Source: an uncultured Thermoplasmatales archaeon
Lineage (GTDB): Archaea > Thermoplasmatota > E2 > DHVEG-1
Length of the DNA stretch: 64,000 nt
Direction of reading: 5' to 3'
NCBI GenBank assembly: GCA_964612945.1
Contig: CAZTFR010000002.1
Location: 7,497 to 71,496 of the forward strand
The position numbers and the translations under genes were made by a program. Under the pieces are notes generated by a model, which saw only the letters and a list, made by a program, of their open reading frames with translations, was not told the DNA's origin and did no database searches. Numbering within the stretch: the stretch's first letter is position 1; each line of letters begins with the position of its first letter. Below, piece by piece: positions 35,996 to 57,268 of this stretch.

Positions 35996-36859
35996 GTGGA
36001 TGTCATTGAAACGTTTGATTTAACAAAGTATTATCGTAGGATTCGAGGAATCGAAGGGATTTCACTTTCTGTTCAGAAGGGTGAGATTTTTGGTTTTCTT
36101 GGTCCGAATGGTGCAGGGAAAACTACGATGATTCGTACCCTGCTTGGTTTTCTGAAGCCGACTGGTGGTCATGGTACCATCTTTGGCTTAGATATTGTCA
36201 AGGATTCCACGGAGATTAAGCCAGATGTGGGGTATATTCCTGGTGATTTGAGTTTTTATGGCTATATGACGGGGAGGCAGTTTTTATCCTATTTTGATGG
36301 TCTGCGTGGCTTTAATGGGTTTCTTCTTGAGGATCTTCTCAGCCGGTTTGATCTTCCTCTTGATCGTAAGATTAAGGGATATTCAAAGGGGATGAAGCAG
36401 AAGTTGGGGATTGTGCAGGCATTTATGCATGATCCAGAGTTGGTGATTATGGATGAGCCTACTTCGGGTTTGGATCCGTTGCTGCAGCAGGAGTTTTATG
36501 AGTTTCTTTTGAAGGAAAAGGATAAAGGAAAAACTATGTTTTTTTCGTCTCATATCCTCAGTGAGGTGGATAAGATTTGTGATCGGGTGGCAATTATTCG
36601 TGATGGTGAGCTGGTTGCCCTTGAGGATGTGGACACCTTGAAGGATCGGCGGGGGAAGAAGTTTCGGGTGCGCATTAAAGAGGATCCGTCGTCGTTTTCT
36701 GGTCCTTCGGAGATGACCATTCGGGATGGATGGATTGAGTTTACAAGTGATGATGATATTGATCGATGGGTGAAGAAGCTCTCCCGTTTTACGGTGCTTG
36801 ATCTGGAGATTCAGGAGTTTAGTCTTGAAGATATTTTTCTGCGGTACTATCGGGGGTGA
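35996..36859 (+). CDS. ABC transporter ATP-binding protein (ABC-2 type)
   Basis: Walker A GPNGAGKTT, signature LSGGMKQK-like YSKGMKQKL, Walker B VIMDEPTSGLD. Confidence 0.8.
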   Translation: MDVIETFDLTKYYRRIRGIEGISLSVQKGEIFGFLGPNGAGKTTMIRTLLGFLKPTGGHGTIFGLDIVKDSTEIKPDVGYIPGDLSFYGYMTGRQFLSYFDGLRGFNGFLLEDLLSRFDLPLDRKIKGYSKGMKQKLGIVQAFMHDPELVIMDEPTSGLDPLLQQEFYEFLLKEKDKGKTMFFSSHILSEVDKICDRVAIIRDGELVALEDVDTLKDRRGKKFRVRIKEDPSSFSGPSEMTIRDGWIEFTSDDDIDRWVKKLSRFTVLDLEIQEFSLEDIFLRYYRG

Positions 36860-36863
36860 TGAG

Positions 36864-37664
36864 ATGAGTGAGGTGTTTGCGTTGCGGGTGATGAAACAGA
36901 CCATGCGTGATCTGTGGAAGATTTCTCTTATGTTGTCGCTTCTTTTTGCAGGGATGGCGGTGATGTATTCTAGTGCATTTCCGTTGTTTAAGGAGAATCT
37001 TGAGGAGTTTGCAGAGGGTTTTGGTGGGTTTCCGTTGCGTGGTATGTCCGATTTTACCTCCTATGCTGGGTTTTTGAATTTGGAGTTGTATCAGATTTTT
37101 TGGCTTCTTATTTTAGGGTTGTTGATTGGGTTTCTTTCTGCATCATTGGTCTCCCGGGAGGTGGAGGGAAAAACCATTGATCTGGTGATGGCAAATCCGA
37201 TTTCTCGCAAACAGTTTATTTTCGAGCGATATCTGGGAATTTTGCCGATGATTCTTCTCGTTAACGTCGTCACTTTTTTTGCGGTGTATGGCATCACCGT
37301 TGCCATTGATGAAACCGTGGATGTGGGTAATTTAGTGTTAACTCATGTGGTTTCGATTCCTTATTTTTTTGCTATTGCAGCTGTTGGGCTTTTTGTGTCT
37401 GTTCTTTTTGATGAAAAAACCAGAGCGGGTATTGTAACAGTGGGCATTCTTATGGGGATGTATATTGTTCAGACGATTAGTCTTCTCTCTCCGGATTACG
37501 AAAATGTTGCTTATCTGAGTCTGATGCATTATTTTGATCCTTCGGAGACTCTTTTGTCTGGCTCTGCTGATGCATTTGGCCTAGTGGTGCTAATCGTAGT
37601 TACCCTTGAATGTTTGCTGGTCTCCATTCTTTTCTTTGAGAAAAAGGATATTGCGGTAAGCTAA
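36864..37664 (+). CDS. ABC-2 family permease
   Basis: 6 TM helices; start reset to MSEVF (ATG 36864) immediately after the ATPase stop. Confidence 0.6.
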   Translation: MSEVFALRVMKQTMRDLWKISLMLSLLFAGMAVMYSSAFPLFKENLEEFAEGFGGFPLRGMSDFTSYAGFLNLELYQIFWLLILGLLIGFLSASLVSREVEGKTIDLVMANPISRKQFIFERYLGILPMILLVNVVTFFAVYGITVAIDETVDVGNLVLTHVVSIPYFFAIAAVGLFVSVLFDEKTRAGIVTVGILMGMYIVQTISLLSPDYENVAYLSLMHYFDPSETLLSGSADAFGLVVLIVVTLECLLVSILFFEKKDIAVS

Positions 37665-43042: not shown

Positions 43043-44350
43043 ATGCATGTGAACAGCTCTGTTGTTTTGTTTGTTAATTTTCTTCTGTTTTGTAGTATGC
43101 TCTCTGGGCCTGTTGGTGCCGAATCGTTCTCAACTGATACGATTAATCCTGTGAGTGTGGCGTCATCGTTTATGGAGGAGATTGTGGCACAGGTTGATGA
43201 GTCCTTGGTTCGTATGTATCATGAAAATCTTATGAGCTTTGGCCCTCGTTATACCGGCTCGATTAATTGTACGCTTGCGGGACAGTATTTGTATGAGTGT
43301 TTTGAGGAGATGAATCTGTCTGTTGCGTTTCATGAGTGGGAGTATGATGGGTTTCATAGTCGAAATGTGGTGGCTACTCTTGAGGGAACTGATCCGGATC
43401 GTCATGGATATTATGTGGTGAGTGCGCATTATGATTGCACGCCGGGTTCTCTTGGTGCTGATGATGATGGCTCTGGTGTTGCTGCGGTGCTTTCGATTGC
43501 CCAGATTATGAGTCAGTATCAGTTTAATAATACCGTTCGTTTTATCTTATTTAGTGGTGAGGAGGTGGGAACGTATGGGAGTTTTTCTTATGCCTGTGAT
43601 TGCTATCAGAATGGTGATGATGTTCTTGGAGTGATCAATCTTGATATGATTGGGTATGCAAATACGACGAAAGGGGGTCGTCTTATCCGGTTTCATTCTC
43701 CTAAGCGGTCGGAATGGATTGCAGAGTGGGCATCTGAGGTGAGTATGCGGTATTCTGATCTTCTGCATATGGGTGTGGAGCTTCGTCCGAACTATATTGG
43801 TGCGGATCATCAGGGGTTTGTGCAATTTGGTTATGATGGTGTCTGGATTGCTCATCACGATGGATACCCCTGGGGGAACACTCCGCAGGATACTCCTGAT
43901 CATTTAAACTGGACGTATCAAATTAAGGCAACTCGGTTTTTGCTTGCGTTTGTCGTCGATCTTGCCCGGACATCTATTCCTATTCAGGTGCATCTGCGAA
44001 CGCCTTATGAGGGTTCGTTGTCTCTGTTTGATCGATCGGTGTGGTATCTAGATGGGGGTAAACCTTGGTATTTAGAGCTGCGTGGGGTGACCCTTCTTAT
44101 TGGGGGAGCGACTGCCCTATGTGAGGTGTTTAGTAAAGATCCGGTTGAGCAGGTTATCTTTTGTATTGATGATGATTTTCTCCGTGGGGATTCTCAACCA
44201 CCGTATGAATGGAAGATCCAAGGGAAGTTCTTTCCCCTCATTGGGCGGCATACGTTGCGGGTGTTTGCCTATACGACAACAGGGGAGATGGCCACTGATG
44301 AAATGGATATCTTTATTGTTACCCTTTCCTGTCAATATGGGAGATTTTAA
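43043..44350 (+). CDS. Secreted aminopeptidase, peptidase M28, with C-terminal Ig-like module
   Basis: Signal peptide; M28 zinc ligands (...HYDCTPGSLGADDDGSGVAAVL...FSGEE...); C-terminus PYEWKIQGKF...RVFAYTTTG shared-domain signature. Confidence 0.7.
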   Translation: MHVNSSVVLFVNFLLFCSMLSGPVGAESFSTDTINPVSVASSFMEEIVAQVDESLVRMYHENLMSFGPRYTGSINCTLAGQYLYECFEEMNLSVAFHEWEYDGFHSRNVVATLEGTDPDRHGYYVVSAHYDCTPGSLGADDDGSGVAAVLSIAQIMSQYQFNNTVRFILFSGEEVGTYGSFSYACDCYQNGDDVLGVINLDMIGYANTTKGGRLIRFHSPKRSEWIAEWASEVSMRYSDLLHMGVELRPNYIGADHQGFVQFGYDGVWIAHHDGYPWGNTPQDTPDHLNWTYQIKATRFLLAFVVDLARTSIPIQVHLRTPYEGSLSLFDRSVWYLDGGKPWYLELRGVTLLIGGATALCEVFSKDPVEQVIFCIDDDFLRGDSQPPYEWKIQGKFFPLIGRHTLRVFAYTTTGEMATDEMDIFIVTLSCQYGRF

Positions 44351-45073
44351 ATGAAGAAACAGCACGTGATGCACGCAGGCGGCCTATTGCTTTGTCTGCT
44401 TGTTCTTAGCTCAAGTGGTTTGTCTACTTCTTTTGATGATTCTGGTGGGTCTTGTCGTACTGTTGCATCTGATGAACCTGTTGTTGTGGTGATGGGGTTT
44501 GAACCATTTGATGTCTATAAGGTAAATCCATCGCAGCTTATTGCTGAGGCACTGCAGAATACAACAGTTGTAGATGCTCGTGTTATTGGAGTGGTGCTTC
44601 CTGTGGAGTATGAAGCCTCTGTAGAGCAGGTAGTTGAGGCCATTGAGCAGTATGATCCGGTGTTGGTGATCAGTACGGGTCTGTCTGCAGATGCTAAGGG
44701 TGTGGAGGTTGAAAAAGTGGGGGTGAATCTGAAAACTGTTGTGCGAGATGATGGGCGCTGGTCGCTTCCCCGTCGTATCGATACAAGGGGTCCCTTGTTT
44801 CGTTTGTCTCCTTTTCCAGTGTGGTCGCTTGTTCAGATGTTGTCAGAAAAGGGGATTGCTGCATCAATGAGTGTTCATGCTGGCCTTTATATTTGTAATG
44901 CGGTATTGTACGAGACACTGGGATATATCAGTGAGCAGGAGATGGATCTTCCCTGTGGATTTTTGCATGTTCCTCTGCTTGATTCTCAGGATCCTGAGGG
45001 GATGGCATTGGAGGTGATGATTGATGCTGTGGAGCAGACGATCATCTACCTGCGTACCACCGCTGTTATGTAG
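44351..45073 (+). CDS. pcp: Pyroglutamyl peptidase I (peptidase C15) carrying an N-terminal signal peptide
   Basis: 240 aa; Pcp-like core (VVVMGFEPFD...; Cys in LYICNAVLYE; His in GFLHVP); N-terminal MKKQHVMHAGGLLLCLLVLSSSG signal; starts directly after the M28 stop. Confidence 0.6.
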   Translation: MKKQHVMHAGGLLLCLLVLSSSGLSTSFDDSGGSCRTVASDEPVVVVMGFEPFDVYKVNPSQLIAEALQNTTVVDARVIGVVLPVEYEASVEQVVEAIEQYDPVLVISTGLSADAKGVEVEKVGVNLKTVVRDDGRWSLPRRIDTRGPLFRLSPFPVWSLVQMLSEKGIAASMSVHAGLYICNAVLYETLGYISEQEMDLPCGFLHVPLLDSQDPEGMALEVMIDAVEQTIIYLRTTAVM

Positions 45074-45116: not shown

Positions 45117-45419
45117 ATGGTGATGAGAGAGCTTACTAAGGCCCAGTTGATTATTGGGTTTCTTGCGTTTTTTTCCACGGTTGTCTTGATCCTTCGTCCA
45201 TCTGAGAACGGGCTCACGCTTATCGATGTCATCGGTAATTTTTTTCTTCAACTCGTGTTAGTCTTGGTGCTTTCCTATGCGGTGCTTGCTCTTCTTGAAT
45301 GGATTCGTTTATTTGAGCTGAAAATAAATGCAGTGTTAACCTATTTATTTCTAGTGACCTTTGTGTATCTTGCCAATTTTGTTAATCTGTTACATGCTGA
45401 TTTGATTGTTTGGTTGTAA
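45117..45419 (+). CDS. Small 3-TM membrane protein
   Basis: Track ORF trimmed to the Met after the pcp stop; hydrophobic throughout. Confidence 0.3.
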   Translation: MVMRELTKAQLIIGFLAFFSTVVLILRPSENGLTLIDVIGNFFLQLVLVLVLSYAVLALLEWIRLFELKINAVLTYLFLVTFVYLANFVNLLHADLIVWL

Positions 45420-46368
45420 GGTGTTGAACGATACTGGTGAGTTCTTGTTGTTCGTTGAGAATGGGTGTTGCGGTGACGGTGAGTGTTTGTTGTATGGAGG
45501 GCTCGTAGAACTCTAGAGTGGTTGCTTGTTTGGATTTATAGACGGTGTTGCAGGGGCAGGAGTCTTTAGGAGTATTGGTGCCATGGACGATCTGCCAGCA
45601 TTTCTTTCCAATGCAGTCTGCGGGTTGTTTGTTAAAAAGCTGTGCGCAGGCTGCGGTGACCCGTTTGATGGTAAAATTGGTGTCCAGGACTAGGATTTTT
45701 TCCTGCAGAAGGTTGAGGGTGATGGTCCATTCTTTGGTGATCTGCTTGAGTTTGTGTTCAAGCATTTTTTCTTCGGTGATATTTTTAATGATAATAGTGA
45801 CGCCGGGTTCTCCGTTGTCGAGGGTGGTGGGGATGTGTTGTATTTCAAGGTGTAGGATGTGGTTGTTTCGGTGTAGCGTGGTTTGCAGTTGGGTTCGTTT
45901 TCCCTCGAGTGCGTGGTAGATGTTGGGGATGAACTCGGGGCGGGAAAAAAGTGATTGGGAGAGGTGTTCGATGTGTTTTCCGATGATGTCCTCTTTGGTG
46001 AGGTCGAGAAGGTCGAGGAGGCCATCGTTTATTTGGATAAATTCAAGGTTTTTGTCCAAGAGTAGTGAGTAATCTGCGGTGATGTTGAGCATGGTGGAAA
46101 GCGGGATGCGTCGTGAGGGAAAGTAGACTTTTGCGGGACCAAAGGTGATCATTTCGGCATGTCCTGAGATGAGTAAGATGTCTAGATATTTGGCTACAGA
46201 GTTGCGGTTGATGCCGATTTCTCGGGCGATATCGGTGACAGTCATGCCTTTCGGGTTGTTTTTTAATATAGCCCGGATTCGTCCTAGTTCCTTTTGATAA
46301 CTCTCCACACAGTCAACATCTGCTGGTTTGTATAAATGCATTTCGTTTTTGCCAACCACTTTTGCCAT
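45382..46368 (-). CDS. Winged-HTH (TrmB/Bat-like) transcriptional regulator with two PAS domains
   Basis: N-terminal MTVTDIAREIGINRNSVAKYLDILLISG HTH, then two PAS-like segments, the second with a Cys cluster CWQIVHG...SCPCN. Confidence 0.55.
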   Translation of the reverse strand: MAKVVGKNEMHLYKPADVDCVESYQKELGRIRAILKNNPKGMTVTDIAREIGINRNSVAKYLDILLISGHAEMITFGPAKVYFPSRRIPLSTMLNITADYSLLLDKNLEFIQINDGLLDLLDLTKEDIIGKHIEHLSQSLFSRPEFIPNIYHALEGKRTQLQTTLHRNNHILHLEIQHIPTTLDNGEPGVTIIIKNITEEKMLEHKLKQITKEWTITLNLLQEKILVLDTNFTIKRVTAACAQLFNKQPADCIGKKCWQIVHGTNTPKDSCPCNTVYKSKQATTLEFYEPSIQQTLTVTATPILNEQQELTSIVQHLTTKQSNQHVTD

Positions 46369-46833
46369 GCAAAAGGGAAAAGTTTTATATACTAAAAATA
46401 TGATACTGCATGTGCCAGGCGTTAATGCAAGGCAAAGAGGGATAGGGATAAAATATGAAACTTACTCGATCCGGCCAGATGGCTGGATATCTTCGTCGCA
46501 CCACATGGCTTCCATCACATCCAGCAAGCCATGTGTTTCTCTCCATCGTGCATCGCATCCCTTTTTTTCCCACTCTCCTGCATGCATTGCCCTGTCATCC
46601 TGGCATACTTTCCTCCTATAAAACCGTGAGGTACCTCCTGAAAAAGCATGCATCCCATCTACCTTTTCCAATAGGGGGTACCTCCCACACCATTTTTTTT
46701 TTTTTGTCAACATCTCTCTTTTGAGAGATCGTTTTAGCAATTGAACTATTCAGATGAAAAAATGAACAGATATCTCTTATGACTATAGTCTTATATATGG
46801 GAGGTAACTATTGGTATTGCTTGGGAGGATAAA

Positions 46834-47586
46834 ATGTTCGGATCTAATTCCTATTTGAGATATATGTCTCTGGCTATGGTTGTTTTACTGTTGGGTGTTG
46901 CAGTAGTACCAAGTATCAACGCGAATGTAGATTCCAAACTTATTGAAATTAAAACAAATTATATTGGCATATCTAGAATAAGACCTCATACTGTAAAACT
47001 TACACAAAAACAAAATATAGAATTGGACCAATTATTTAACAATATTAAAAAAGATTTAGAAAAAGCAGAGAATAGAGCAGAATTAGAAGAATCATTCAAA
47101 AATGCATTTATTCAACTTGAAAAATTTGGCCTTATTACCCATGAAAAACAATCTGTTCAAATAAATAATCGTATTCTAATAATTGGATTTGCACATTGGA
47201 TTGATTTTTTCATTCACCCAGATATTATCTCAAGTGGCATATTTCCCAGGTTTTTCAATTTTTTACATACTCCATCTTTATTAGTATATTTATTACCATT
47301 AAAATTTAATTCAACTATATCATTTGGAACTCGTTCAGGAAGCCTTGGTGGAGGTGCTCTCACTCACGAATCAAATGGTTGGTTATTTTCAACAGATTTG
47401 CATGAGAAAAAGTATTGGAACGGTTCTTTTGTAGGAGGCTTAGATACTATTGAATTTCGGGGTAGTTTTAGTTGGATAATATATTATATTGGAGCAAAAG
47501 GTTTCAAAGGTATTAATATAGCTCGTCCCGAAAGGAATACATTTTTGATAGGAACTGTTGATAATGTAAATTTAGATCAATTCTAA
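46834..47586 (+). CDS. Secreted hypothetical protein (AT-rich gene)
   Basis: 250 aa, signal peptide MSLAMVVLLLGVAVVPSINA; no known motif; has a decayed paralogue immediately downstream. Confidence 0.45.
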   Translation: MFGSNSYLRYMSLAMVVLLLGVAVVPSINANVDSKLIEIKTNYIGISRIRPHTVKLTQKQNIELDQLFNNIKKDLEKAENRAELEESFKNAFIQLEKFGLITHEKQSVQINNRILIIGFAHWIDFFIHPDIISSGIFPRFFNFLHTPSLLVYLLPLKFNSTISFGTRSGSLGGGALTHESNGWLFSTDLHEKKYWNGSFVGGLDTIEFRGSFSWIIYYIGAKGFKGINIARPERNTFLIGTVDNVNLDQF

Positions 47587-47589
47587 ACT

Positions 47590-48130
47590 CAACACCACAA
47601 CAATCATTCTGCTCCTCCTTGGCGTAGCCGTTGCTCCTTTGATGCAGGCAGAACTAAAACTCCACGAATCAGATTATATTGAAGTCCAGACAGAATTCTG
47701 TGGACTTTTTAGAAAACCACACACCACACAGCTTACACAGAATGAGGCAATGGAACTGGAACACCTCATTGAAGACATTGAAAACAGGTTGTTACAGACG
47801 GAGACGCGATAGCAGACAGTAGAAATTTACCATGAAACACTTGACAAATTTCATAACTATGGTTTAATTGAGGATACCTGTTTTAATCAGTTGAAGAGAA
47901 ATATAATTTTTCCCCCTCTGAGAACTATGGTTATTGGTTTTGCCCATTTGATTCACTTTATACTGATACAATATATGTAAATTGGAGGAAAATTCGTTTT
48001 ATAGGAGATCCTAATATTAGGGTCAGGGCAAAAGATATACATGAGACTATTGGCCCATGGGAATATCTAAAAGTTTCTCTTTCCAAAAACTATCCTTCAG
48101 ATAATATTTTCTCCAGGACACGAAATGAAA
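47590..48130 (+). pseudogene. Decayed tandem paralogue of 46834..47586
   Basis: Translation gives LLLGVAVAPLMQAELKLHESDYIEVQTEFCGLFRKPHTTQLTQNEAMELEHLIEDIENRLLQTETR*QTVEIYHETLDKFHNYGLIEDTCFNQLKRNIIFPPLRTMVIGFAHLIHF. This is colinear with ...RPHTVKLTQKQNIELDQLFNNIKKDLEKAE...FIQLEKFGLITHEKQSVQINNRILIIGFAHWIDFF of the upstream gene, but carries an in-frame TAG and frame breaks. Confidence 0.45.
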
Positions 48131-48280
48131 TATATTGCAGTTCACTCAAGAAATAGAAGATATTCTATATAGTAGAGAGTTTTTATTCAATAGAGAATTA
48201 ACAATAAAATACTTGGGATTAAGAAACAACTATTTTCCTTTAAAAATGTTAAAATATGATATCATATATCCAAAAAAACA

Positions 48281-48487
48281 ATGCATTATCAAAAATGGAG
48301 TAAGATGTATACATTCGGCTTTTTTCTGGGAAGTGCTGTTGGAGCTGCAATATTATTGATTCTTTGGTTTCTGGGATTTGACACGTCGATATCCTATTTT
48401 GCTAAACTCTTTTTATTTCTCATCATTGTGATCTCATTTAGTATTGGTGTATGGTATTATGAATTGAGGAAAAATAAAAAAAAATAA
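48281..48487 (+). CDS. Small 2-TM membrane protein
   Basis: 68 aa, two hydrophobic helices, Lys-rich tail; AT-rich. Confidence 0.3.
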   Translation: MHYQKWSKMYTFGFFLGSAVGAAILLILWFLGFDTSISYFAKLFLFLIIVISFSIGVWYYELRKNKKK

Positions 48488-48883
48488 ACTGTGAACTGTA
48501 GAGTATATCACGTGAGTTTAGAAAAAAGATAAATACTTTGAAACAGAGCGTACGTTGGGTAAAAAATGGGTAGAAAAAGATGGCTTGGGGTTTTTGTTGT
48601 GTTTATGATTCTGAATATTATTCTGATTCCAGTGACCATGTTTAATGTTCTATCAATAAATCTTATAGCTTTACATTTGATACGAGGTTGCCTGATATTT
48701 TTTGCTCTCGTTGCACTACTCATAGCAGTTCTATCAAAACAATAATATGATTTTTATTTCGTGGATATTCATAATTAATTCTATAAACGGAGTTTGATAC
48801 GTTCCACTTTTTTCCCCAAGCATCCTTTAACAAAGAAAAAAAGTATATGTACACCAATACATACAACACCTTCAGAGGATCAA

Positions 48884-56463: not shown

Positions 56464-57195
56464 TTAGCTGAGTATAGTAAAAACAAAGATAATCCCAATA
56501 AGAATCGGCTGATGCACAAGATAAATCACCAACGAATGCCTCCCAAGAAAACAAAAAACACCAACCACTCTATTTGGCACCGGCTCAGATAGCTCAAACC
56601 GTCGCGTATTCCCCCAGTATAGGATGCGCCCAAGCACCATACCCAAAAGCACCACCCCAAACCAGGGAAGCAAAGGAAAATAATCAAGGGTATAAAACAA
56701 AGACGGACGAATACCTGCCCACAAAAGCCAAGGAAACTCAACAATAATCCCTTGAAACAGAAGACCCAGCACAACAAAAACCACGGCAAGCTCCACATTA
56801 TACCTCGGCCAGCGCAAAAACGGATAACTCATCATAATACACACCCCAATACAATGCAAAATCCCAAACATGATGAATCCCTCATGCGGATACACATACG
56901 TAATCAAAGTGATCAAAAGCCCAAACCCAAAAATCTTCAACCCCCGCACCACAAATTTCAACGGAATCTCCCGCTCCGATAGATACTGCTGTGCACGCGC
57001 ATAACTCAGCGTCAGCGACACACCCACCAAAAGCAAAAACGTCGTACCAATTGGATACAAAAAAAGACGAACCAGCGGATGATACAAATCAATAAAAACA
57101 ACCTGAAAATAGGTAAGATCAAACAGAATGTGATAGGTAATCATCATACAAATCGCAATACCACGAACAAAATCTACCTCCCAAAACCGAGTCAT
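56464..57195 (-). CDS. DUF1624 / HGSNAT-like acyltransferase-3 family membrane protein
   Basis: MTRFWEVDFVRGIAICMMITYHILFDL N-terminal motif plus multiple TM helices; start trimmed from the track ORF. Confidence 0.45.
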   Translation of the reverse strand: MTRFWEVDFVRGIAICMMITYHILFDLTYFQVVFIDLYHPLVRLFLYPIGTTFLLLVGVSLTLSYARAQQYLSEREIPLKFVVRGLKIFGFGLLITLITYVYPHEGFIMFGILHCIGVCIMMSYPFLRWPRYNVELAVVFVVLGLLFQGIIVEFPWLLWAGIRPSLFYTLDYFPLLPWFGVVLLGMVLGRILYWGNTRRFELSEPVPNRVVGVFCFLGRHSLVIYLVHQPILIGIIFVFTILS

Positions 57196-57268
57196 CACAG
57201 CCTTCAGTACCACAACATCCAAAACAAAACCTCACCATAAAAAGATGCTGACAAAAAAAAAGAGTGAG

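Follow-up and report, generated by a model that had tools for sequence, protein, structure and literature searches.

Genomic islets acquired by horizontal transfer are recognised by a deviating GC content and oligonucleotide usage, by secreted or membrane-bound cargo, by a different occupant at the same position in relatives, and by integrases, transfer RNA (tRNA) targets and flanking repeats. Secreted and surface multigene families that evolve by birth and death are marked by tandem or clustered genes with truncated and frameshifted copies among them. Features of both were found in a stretch of 64,000 nucleotides from an uncultured Thermoplasmatales archaeon (GenBank assembly GCA_964612945.1, contig CAZTFR010000002.1, positions 7,497 to 71,496 of the forward strand), which is referred to as the window throughout. 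Upstream of the genes for NFACT and Pelota, an AT-rich islet carries an intact gene for a secreted protein of 250 amino acids (aa), termed copy 1, and directly behind it the remnant of a second, related gene, termed copy 2. With a probability of roughly 60%, the islet arose when the cargo of a variable slot was replaced, probably through transfer from a low-GC relative, with birth-and-death decay acting alongside. By its profile matches, copy 1 itself belongs to a large and so far uncharacterised family of proteins secreted by archaea, of which it is a divergent and shortened member. An earlier description of the islet, made from the sequence without database searches, is called the original prediction.

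An AT-rich islet upstream of NFACT

The islet is the strongest compositional outlier of the 64 kb, and its drop in GC content is real and far beyond chance. In the sliding-window profile the GC content falls from 0.42-0.50 to 0.27-0.36 across ~46.7-48.9 kb, and the islet as a whole has a GC content of 0.318 compared to 0.447 for the remaining window. The two lowest 1-kb bins of the whole window are both located at 47-49 kb, with a GC content of 0.329. When windows of 750 nt were used, the maximum within the islet (0.363) stayed below the minimum outside of it (0.373), so that the two ranges do not overlap. The tetranucleotide L1 distance between the islet and the rest was 0.499, while other windows of 2.2 kb reached 0.228 +/- 0.026 with a maximum of 0.311, which places the islet more than 10 standard deviations away from them. 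Host intergenic DNA had a pooled GC content of 0.40, with short intergenic regions down to 0.23-0.33. The sharp change in base composition, and with it the view of the locus as accessory and compositionally deviant, had been put forward in the original prediction and are both supported by these values.

Neither tRNA, transfer-messenger RNA or Rfam elements nor integrase or transposase genes were found in or adjoining the islet. Flanking direct repeats had been proposed earlier as a further check, and the search for direct and inverted repeats around the islet returned only short, chance-level pairs.

Table 1. Features in and beside the islet, with positions counted from the first letter of the window (HMM, hidden Markov model; ORF, open reading frame; GC3, GC content at third codon positions; 2-TM, two transmembrane segments)
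Feature	Position	Strand	Basis or remark
AT-rich islet	46694..48883	.	starts with T13 run (46694-46706), ends at NFACT start codon (48884)
Copy 1, 250-aa secreted-protein gene	46834..47586	+	ORF, family HMM, predicted signal peptide
Predicted signal peptide of copy 1	aa 1-30 = 46834-46923	+	hydrophobic N-terminus ending ...VVPSINA/N (cleavage before N)
Copy 2, pseudogene remnant	47576..47965	+	signal peptide, N-domain and first beta strand only; tblastn, family HMM
In-frame TAG of copy 2	47810..47812	+	GAG -> TAG, first Glu of family consensus 'ETREE'
GFAH motif of copy 2	47936-47947	+	
Host-like patch in islet	47587..47820	.	GC 0.45, GC3 0.45; A 0.34, C 0.25, G 0.20, T 0.22
AT-rich stretch, no recognisable coding content	47966..48280	.	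GC 0.28; site expected for the C-terminal half of copy 2
Candidate small 2-TM protein, 68 aa	48281..48487	+	in source annotation; singleton cluster
Candidate small 2-TM protein, 59 aa, unverified ORF	48566..48745	+	not in source annotation or protein collection
PAS-HTH regulator gene	45382-46368	-	left of islet
Conserved non-coding block	46369..46693	.	left border of islet; holds TATA-like box of PAS-HTH regulator
Perfect palindrome GAGGTACCTC, candidate operator	46628..46637	.	conserved in L009
Second GGTACC-centred site GGGGTACCTCCC	46675..46686	.	conserved in L009

A large family of secreted archaeal proteins

The secreted protein of 250 aa that had been proposed for the islet was confirmed along with its signal peptide (Table 1), while its description as an orphan without a recognisable motif did not hold. 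A word-indexed search with copy 1 returned the protein itself and two metagenome proteins at 26% identity. The profile of these three sequences, run against 1.84 billion cluster representatives, matched 1,102 representatives at E <= 1e-3, 799 at E <= 1e-10, and 64 at E <= 1e-30, most of them 270-320 aa in length. The family representatives were clustered at 50% identity. A word-indexed search with the family alignment gave 7 matches only.

The family consensus starts with a predicted Sec signal peptide, MKKLLVVGVIVLFLGLAxAPSINAN, that ends in ...APSINA. It is followed by a small beta-beta-alpha-alpha N-domain with the consensus ELVEITTExCGL..KPHTV.LT.EEAEEVE.LFD.I..RL...ETREE..EIF.EAVVELDKYGLL. 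Behind the N-domain, the consensus continues with a hydrophobic linker of ~38 aa, the strand N..CLIAG.T..T.F, and a hydrophobic stretch, and closes with a beta-rich C-terminal domain (GW..T.G.NG...W.G.FYG...Y.G..GFTGI.I...YLG.A..V.I.). A near-universal Cys sits in 'NxxCLIAG'. The conserved positions consist of Gly, aromatic residues or Phe, Leu, Pro, one Asn, and one Cys, with none (0) of catalytic type, which suggests a secreted protein with a non-enzymatic binding or structural role.

For copy 1 and for a typical member, no match rose above noise in Pfam, NCBIfam, PHROGs, or PADLOC, and the family profile had no sequence match in the PDB. The AlphaFold2 model of a typical member (P0010) reached a mean predicted local distance difference test score (pLDDT) of 87.9 and a predicted template modelling score of 0.80, and the model of copy 1 a pLDDT of 81, with values above 90 in the C-terminal beta domain. 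When both models were compared by Foldseek to the PDB, nothing was found at E <= 1e-3, and a Foldseek search of the viral structures of BFVD gave nothing at this threshold either. A viral origin was looked for in IMG/VR, where no contigs with family members were found, and the family search of GTDB species representatives gave no match, with the window's own genome likewise unmatched. With at least 1,100 sequence clusters, no database model, and a confidently predicted structure that has no PDB match, the family presents a candidate target for a formal description and for structural work.

Copy 1 matched the family HMM at positions 8-111 (93-99 bits) and 185-304 (61-67 bits), with the middle of the model missing, and retained all five of the five invariant family residues. 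The second of these matches covers the C-terminal beta domain with its invariant Gly and Phe positions. Its GC content of 0.30 and GC3 of 0.18 stand against a GC3 of 0.37-0.60 in the other large ORFs of the window. The source annotation at NCBI starts at the second ATG and gives a protein of 240 aa. A GGAGG motif lies 5-9 nt upstream of the first ATG, and R9, the sole basic residue of the n-region, is encoded upstream of the second ATG; because of this motif spacing and the position of R9, the form of 250 aa is favoured. From the base composition (stop frequency of ~0.08 per codon in DNA of 30% GC), an open frame of 250 codons is expected by chance at ~1e-9, which argues that the gene has been maintained. 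Copy 1 is thus most likely functional as judged from its sequence, and its product would be secreted and could take part in binding.

On other contigs, family genes had a GC content of 0.28-0.37 and a GC3 of 0.14-0.23, and the contigs themselves a GC content of 0.31-0.37. These contigs and the window had no overlapping housekeeping genes by which their taxonomy could be linked. Several of them carry more than one family gene. A full copy occurs with a copy of 198 aa that lacks the N-terminus on L002, two adjoining copies occur with an N-terminal fragment on L013/L014, and an intact copy, a frameshifted copy, and an N-terminal fragment of 75 aa are found together on L018. A further N-terminal fragment of 117 aa occurs on L005. 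As tandem copies and fragments are common elsewhere, an intact gene beside a decayed one is normal for this family, which appears to evolve by birth and death in clusters.

Neighbours of family genes are often other secreted proteins, among them NosD/beta-helix and Big_7 proteins, PKD/PQQ propellers, and a C25 peptidase. The N-termini of NosD/beta-helix and Big_7 proteins on the same contigs, which are otherwise unrelated to the family, also match the signal-peptide region of the family HMM (positions 2-38). These leader matches are located at 228-305 of L005, 2912-3007 of L015, 5446-5541 of L016, 2399-2509 of L018, and 5101-5196 of L002. The ...APSINA leader peptide seems to be conserved for secretion throughout the lineage.

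The remnant of a second copy

When the protein of copy 1 was searched against the window by tblastn, the sole further significant match was located at 47594-47965 in the +2 frame, with 33% identity over 125 aa and an E-value of 5e-15. The family HMM matched the same region at positions 6-117/118 only, with 90-96 bits and an E-value of about 1e-29. The collinear second copy of the original prediction and its shared blocks were therefore found again, as was the in-frame TAG. The recognisable homology extends over ~390 nt (47576-47965) instead of the ~540 bp proposed. It runs for ~130 codons in one frame and then ends at ~47965, and the frameshifts that had been claimed were not observed. A word-indexed search for homologues of copy 2 gave no match.

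The frame of copy 2 begins directly after a TAG with ATC (47576-47578) where a start codon is expected, and its beginning overlaps the stop codon of copy 1. Neither ATG, GTG, nor TTG occurs in this frame before 47639, a position that is itself within the signal peptide. With one stop in ~130 codons, the frame holds fewer stops than random sequence of equal composition. The C-terminal domain was not detected in any of the six frames, either with the HMMER filters switched off or by tblastn at an E-value of 10, and the AT-rich stretch that takes its place has no match to the family HMM, to copy 1 by tblastn, or to the M28b peptidase that is described below. Judged by its family homology, the missing start codon, the TAG, and the missing C-terminal domain, copy 2 is a pseudogene. 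The lesions are three in number and independent of each other, and one of them is the lack of a domain that would span more than 400 nt, so that single-base errors can hardly account for them. The abrupt loss of homology points to a truncation and not to slow decay in place.

The GC content of copy 2 (0.39) exceeds that of copy 1 (0.30), as had been predicted. The part of copy 2 that lies 5' of the TAG corresponds to a host-like patch, which shares the A+C-rich coding-strand signature of host genes (Table 1). A maximum-likelihood GC change point was placed at 47820, beside the TAG, with a log-likelihood ratio of 8.7 and a GC content of 0.45 to its left and 0.29 to its right. An ORF of 57 aa at 47639-47812 (TTG start, with an ATG at 47642) coincides with the host-like patch and terminates at the TAG; its predicted product would be a fragment of the N-domain that lacks the signal peptide, and it is not included in the protein collection.

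The mature N-domains of both copies are 31% identical, while members outside of the window are closer to each of them over the N-domain, with 47-52% identity for copy 1 (P0017) and ~43% for copy 2 (P0144 and P0030). The DNA alignment of the copies, a check that had been suggested earlier, found no detectable similarity beyond chance-level matches of 9-18 nt. With an identity of 31%, no similarity in DNA, and closer members elsewhere, a recent local duplication is excluded. Of the predicted duplication followed by pseudogenisation, the pseudogene is consequently retained and the recent duplication is not.

Both copies carry (I/V)IGFAH in place of CLIAG.T and have lost the Cys that is present at this position in 106 of 110 members. 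Their linkers span 9 aa in copy 1 (automated) and ~15-20 aa in copy 2 (read by eye), compared to a family median of 38 aa. These traits occurred together in 0 of 131 other sampled members. As the GFAH motif, the short linker, and the loss of Cys are shared, the copies are assigned to one otherwise unsampled subfamily and appear to be old paralogues or xenologues of this atypical group. The two copies contrast in composition, which suggests that they have resided in the genome for different lengths of time; a simple duplication in situ would leave this unexplained.

A variable slot in related genomes

Among GTDB representatives, the nearest relative of the NFACT protein was found in a Thermoplasmatota metagenome-assembled genome (MAG) at 53% identity (L003), and contigs of Joint Genome Institute (JGI) metagenomes yielded similar relatives. 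On the relative contig L009, the gene order runs from an M28a-C15 peptidase pair, a small transmembrane protein, and the PAS-HTH regulator on the minus strand to an M28b peptidase, NFACT, and Pelota. The window agrees with this order except that the islet stands where L009 has M28b, and no remnant of M28b was found within the islet. The conserved non-coding block aligns collinearly to positions 2548-2925 of L009 despite the different gene downstream, and this conservation ends at 46693, just before the T13 run, which gives the islet a sharp left border.

Other contigs carry other genes directly upstream of NFACT, namely a split IS5-like DDE transposase (DUF772 and DDE_Tnp_1) at 7215-8194 of L007 and a DUF763 gene on L011. 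As its contents differ between L009/L003, L007, and L011, the site upstream of NFACT is a synteny breakpoint or variable slot in this clade, and the transposase of L007 supports the position as a rearrangement hot spot. The comparison of related genomes for presence or absence, which had been proposed earlier, thus shows the islet to be absent from the syntenic position of distant relatives. Two of the marks of a genomic island, deviant composition and absence from the syntenic position (in distant relatives with ~53% NFACT identity), are present here, while mobility signatures are not.

The contigs syntenic for NFACT and Pelota (L003, L007-L012) have a GC content of 0.34-0.37, compared to ~0.45 for the genome of the window, at a protein identity of 53-81%. 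The genome of the window is thus the GC-rich outlier of the clade, and its excess of ~10 points suggests a lineage-specific shift. Since the host stands ~10 GC points above all relatives, recent imports are easy to spot in it. In the literature, only general background on sediment Thermoplasmatota turned up.

Origin of the islet

From the composition, homology, lesions, and synteny differences described above, we infer the direction and timing of a transfer and the order of events as follows. The slot upstream of NFACT and Pelota is variable within a clade of low-GC Thermoplasmatota-like archaea, and in this genome it contains ~2.2 kb of DNA of foreign composition, with copy 1 as an intact and expressible gene, the N-terminal remnant of copy 2, and two unverified 2-TM ORFs as its cargo. 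Copy 1 and most of the islet most likely entered from a low-GC relative once the host had reached ~45% GC. Such a late import of copy 1 and its AT-rich flanks is favoured because the synonymous sites of a long-resident gene should have followed the rise in host GC, and the composition of copy 1 matches that of family genes in low-GC genomes. An older resident paralogue has probably left its remnant in the host-like 5' part of copy 2. Copy 2 is disabled by the loss of its start codon, the change from Glu to TAG, and the loss of the entire C-terminal domain.

Several observations weigh against an import. No mobility signatures occur at the islet, and for copy 1 the databases contain neither a donor nor a close relative, with the best outside identity at ~50% and limited to the N-domain. 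At its 3' end (47816-47965), copy 2 is as AT-rich as the rest of the islet (GC 0.31), and the slot comparison was informative from one relative lineage only (L009/L003, ~53% NFACT identity). Accessory DNA can also become AT-rich without transfer, and the overlap between the stop of copy 1 and the start of copy 2 resembles a native tandem pair, which fits an in-situ history or a joint acquisition better than separate arrivals. An alternative is an old tandem duplication in situ without horizontal transfer, with both copies as long-term residents. The region, weakly expressed and weakly selected, would have drifted under AT-biased mutation and copy 2 would have decayed, while selection or biased gene conversion kept the core genes GC-richer. 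The derived traits common to both copies, the junction typical of native tandem pairs, the absent mobility signatures, the low GC content reached by short host intergenic regions, and the birth-and-death decay of the family in other genomes all agree with it. It is nevertheless considered rather unlikely, as the GC3 of copy 1 lies below that of all other window genes and its GC content below that of pooled intergenic DNA, both in line with the low-GC family. Furthermore, the pseudogenised 5' part of copy 2, which would be expected to drift fastest, is the GC-richest part of the islet, and the slot of the syntenic relative holds a different gene.

In composition, the islet is equal to related low-GC populations, and the sequence comes from one NCBI contig of 75.5 kb whose protein clusters are singletons, so that a chimeric insertion from a co-occurring low-GC relative during assembly of the MAG contig was also considered. 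It is regarded as highly improbable, since both flanks are host-like and syntenic with L009, which would require two precise mis-joins in one contig, and since the islet includes a host-like patch and the conserved intergenic block continues straight into it. Even less credible is a copy 2 that still functions, either by readthrough of the TAG through pyrrolysine or suppression or by way of a sequencing error, in spite of the single stop in ~130 codons, the 90-96 bits still reached by the N-domain, and a frame that is more open than chance predicts. The frame lacks a start codon before 47639, within the signal peptide, and none of the frames encodes the C-terminal domain, to which all five invariant residues belong. 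Recoding of TAG as pyrrolysine was rejected, as TAG terminates 6 of the 50 large ORFs in the window and hence works as a stop, and no pyl genes were noted within the window. Cargo replacement by transfer, combined with birth-and-death decay, therefore remains the preferred explanation.

Taken alone, the islet represents routine accessory-gene turnover in an uncultured archaeon and calls for no new mechanism. What is worth following is the uncharacterised family without a fold match and the conserved block of regulator and palindromes with its swapped cargo.

Putative operator and neighbouring genes

The non-coding block between the PAS-HTH regulator and the islet contains two GGTACC-centred palindromes (Table 1), which are the only exact matches within the 64 kb. 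They are spaced by 47 nt in the window and by 45 nt in L009, and TGCATCCCA is conserved between them. The block may serve as an operator for the regulator or may encode a small RNA. The cargo is located behind this putative operator of a divergent regulator, and the PAS-HTH protein may regulate it. A modular arrangement, in which sensor and paired palindromes stay fixed and the controlled secreted-protein gene is swapped between an M28 peptidase and copy 1, whose family would have a fold not found in the PDB, is conceivable but decidedly doubtful. For sediment archaea that feed on polymers outside the cell, a conserved regulator and palindrome block with interchangeable secreted-protein genes offers a hypothesis of regulation that can be tested.

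The small 2-TM protein that was predicted to follow the second copy was recovered as two candidate ORFs of 68 and 59 aa. Neither had a match in Pfam, NCBIfam, PHROGs, or PADLOC, and homologues of these two and of an ORF of 74 aa were not found across the fetched loci.

Upstream of the regulator, the window holds adjoining genes for an M28 peptidase (435 aa) and a pyroglutamyl peptidase C15 (240 aa) at 43043-45073, both with signal peptides. These two putatively secreted peptidases fit an extracellular protein-degrading lifestyle. By coding-strand composition, the genes of the window fall into two classes, which are A+C-rich (A 0.31-0.36, C 0.26-0.34, G 0.13-0.20) and G+T-rich (T 0.34-0.42), respectively. 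NFACT, the PAS regulator, and many cytosolic genes belong to the former, while the latter comprises a transporter, the genes for the M28 and C15 peptidases, and those at 36798-37664 and 56464-57222. The contrast is seen across the whole window, e.g., between 42.5-46.3 kb and 48.9-50.5 kb. Together, the two classes give local swings in GC skew of +/-0.3-0.6.

Comparison with known systems

In both models, the beta-rich C-terminal domain had its top Foldseek matches among eight-stranded ligand-binding beta barrels and sandwiches, namely lipocalins, NEAT domains, and dirigent proteins. With E >= 0.27, a probability <= 0.08, and TM-scores of 0.1-0.2, these matches are non-significant and serve as a lead only, not as evidence of homology or fold. 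The likeness lies in the proteins of the family being secreted, as predicted from their signal peptides, and in the absence of conserved residues of catalytic type.

By position, the counterpart is the M28b protein of L009/L003, a secreted M28 aminopeptidase paralogue whose gene fills this slot, flanked by NFACT and by the regulator with its palindrome block. It also carries a signal peptide, although as a member of Peptidase_M28 it is unrelated to copy 1. Compared to horizontally acquired genomic islets, the islet of the window is small at only 2.2 kb and lacks an integrase, a tRNA target, and flanking repeats. It also adjoins a conserved regulator with an operator-like block and has an internal host-like patch. 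It resembles such islets in its deviating GC content and oligonucleotide usage, its secreted and membrane cargo, the different occupant in a relative, and the pseudogene inside it.

Unlike the birth-and-death multigene families of secreted and surface proteins described so far, the family of copy 1 is undescribed and lacks both a model in Pfam, NCBIfam, PHROG, or PADLOC and a PDB homologue by sequence or fold. It is like them in its size of ~1,100 representatives, in the tandem and clustered arrangement of its genes, and in the truncated and frameshifted copies that accompany them (L002, L005, L013, and L018).

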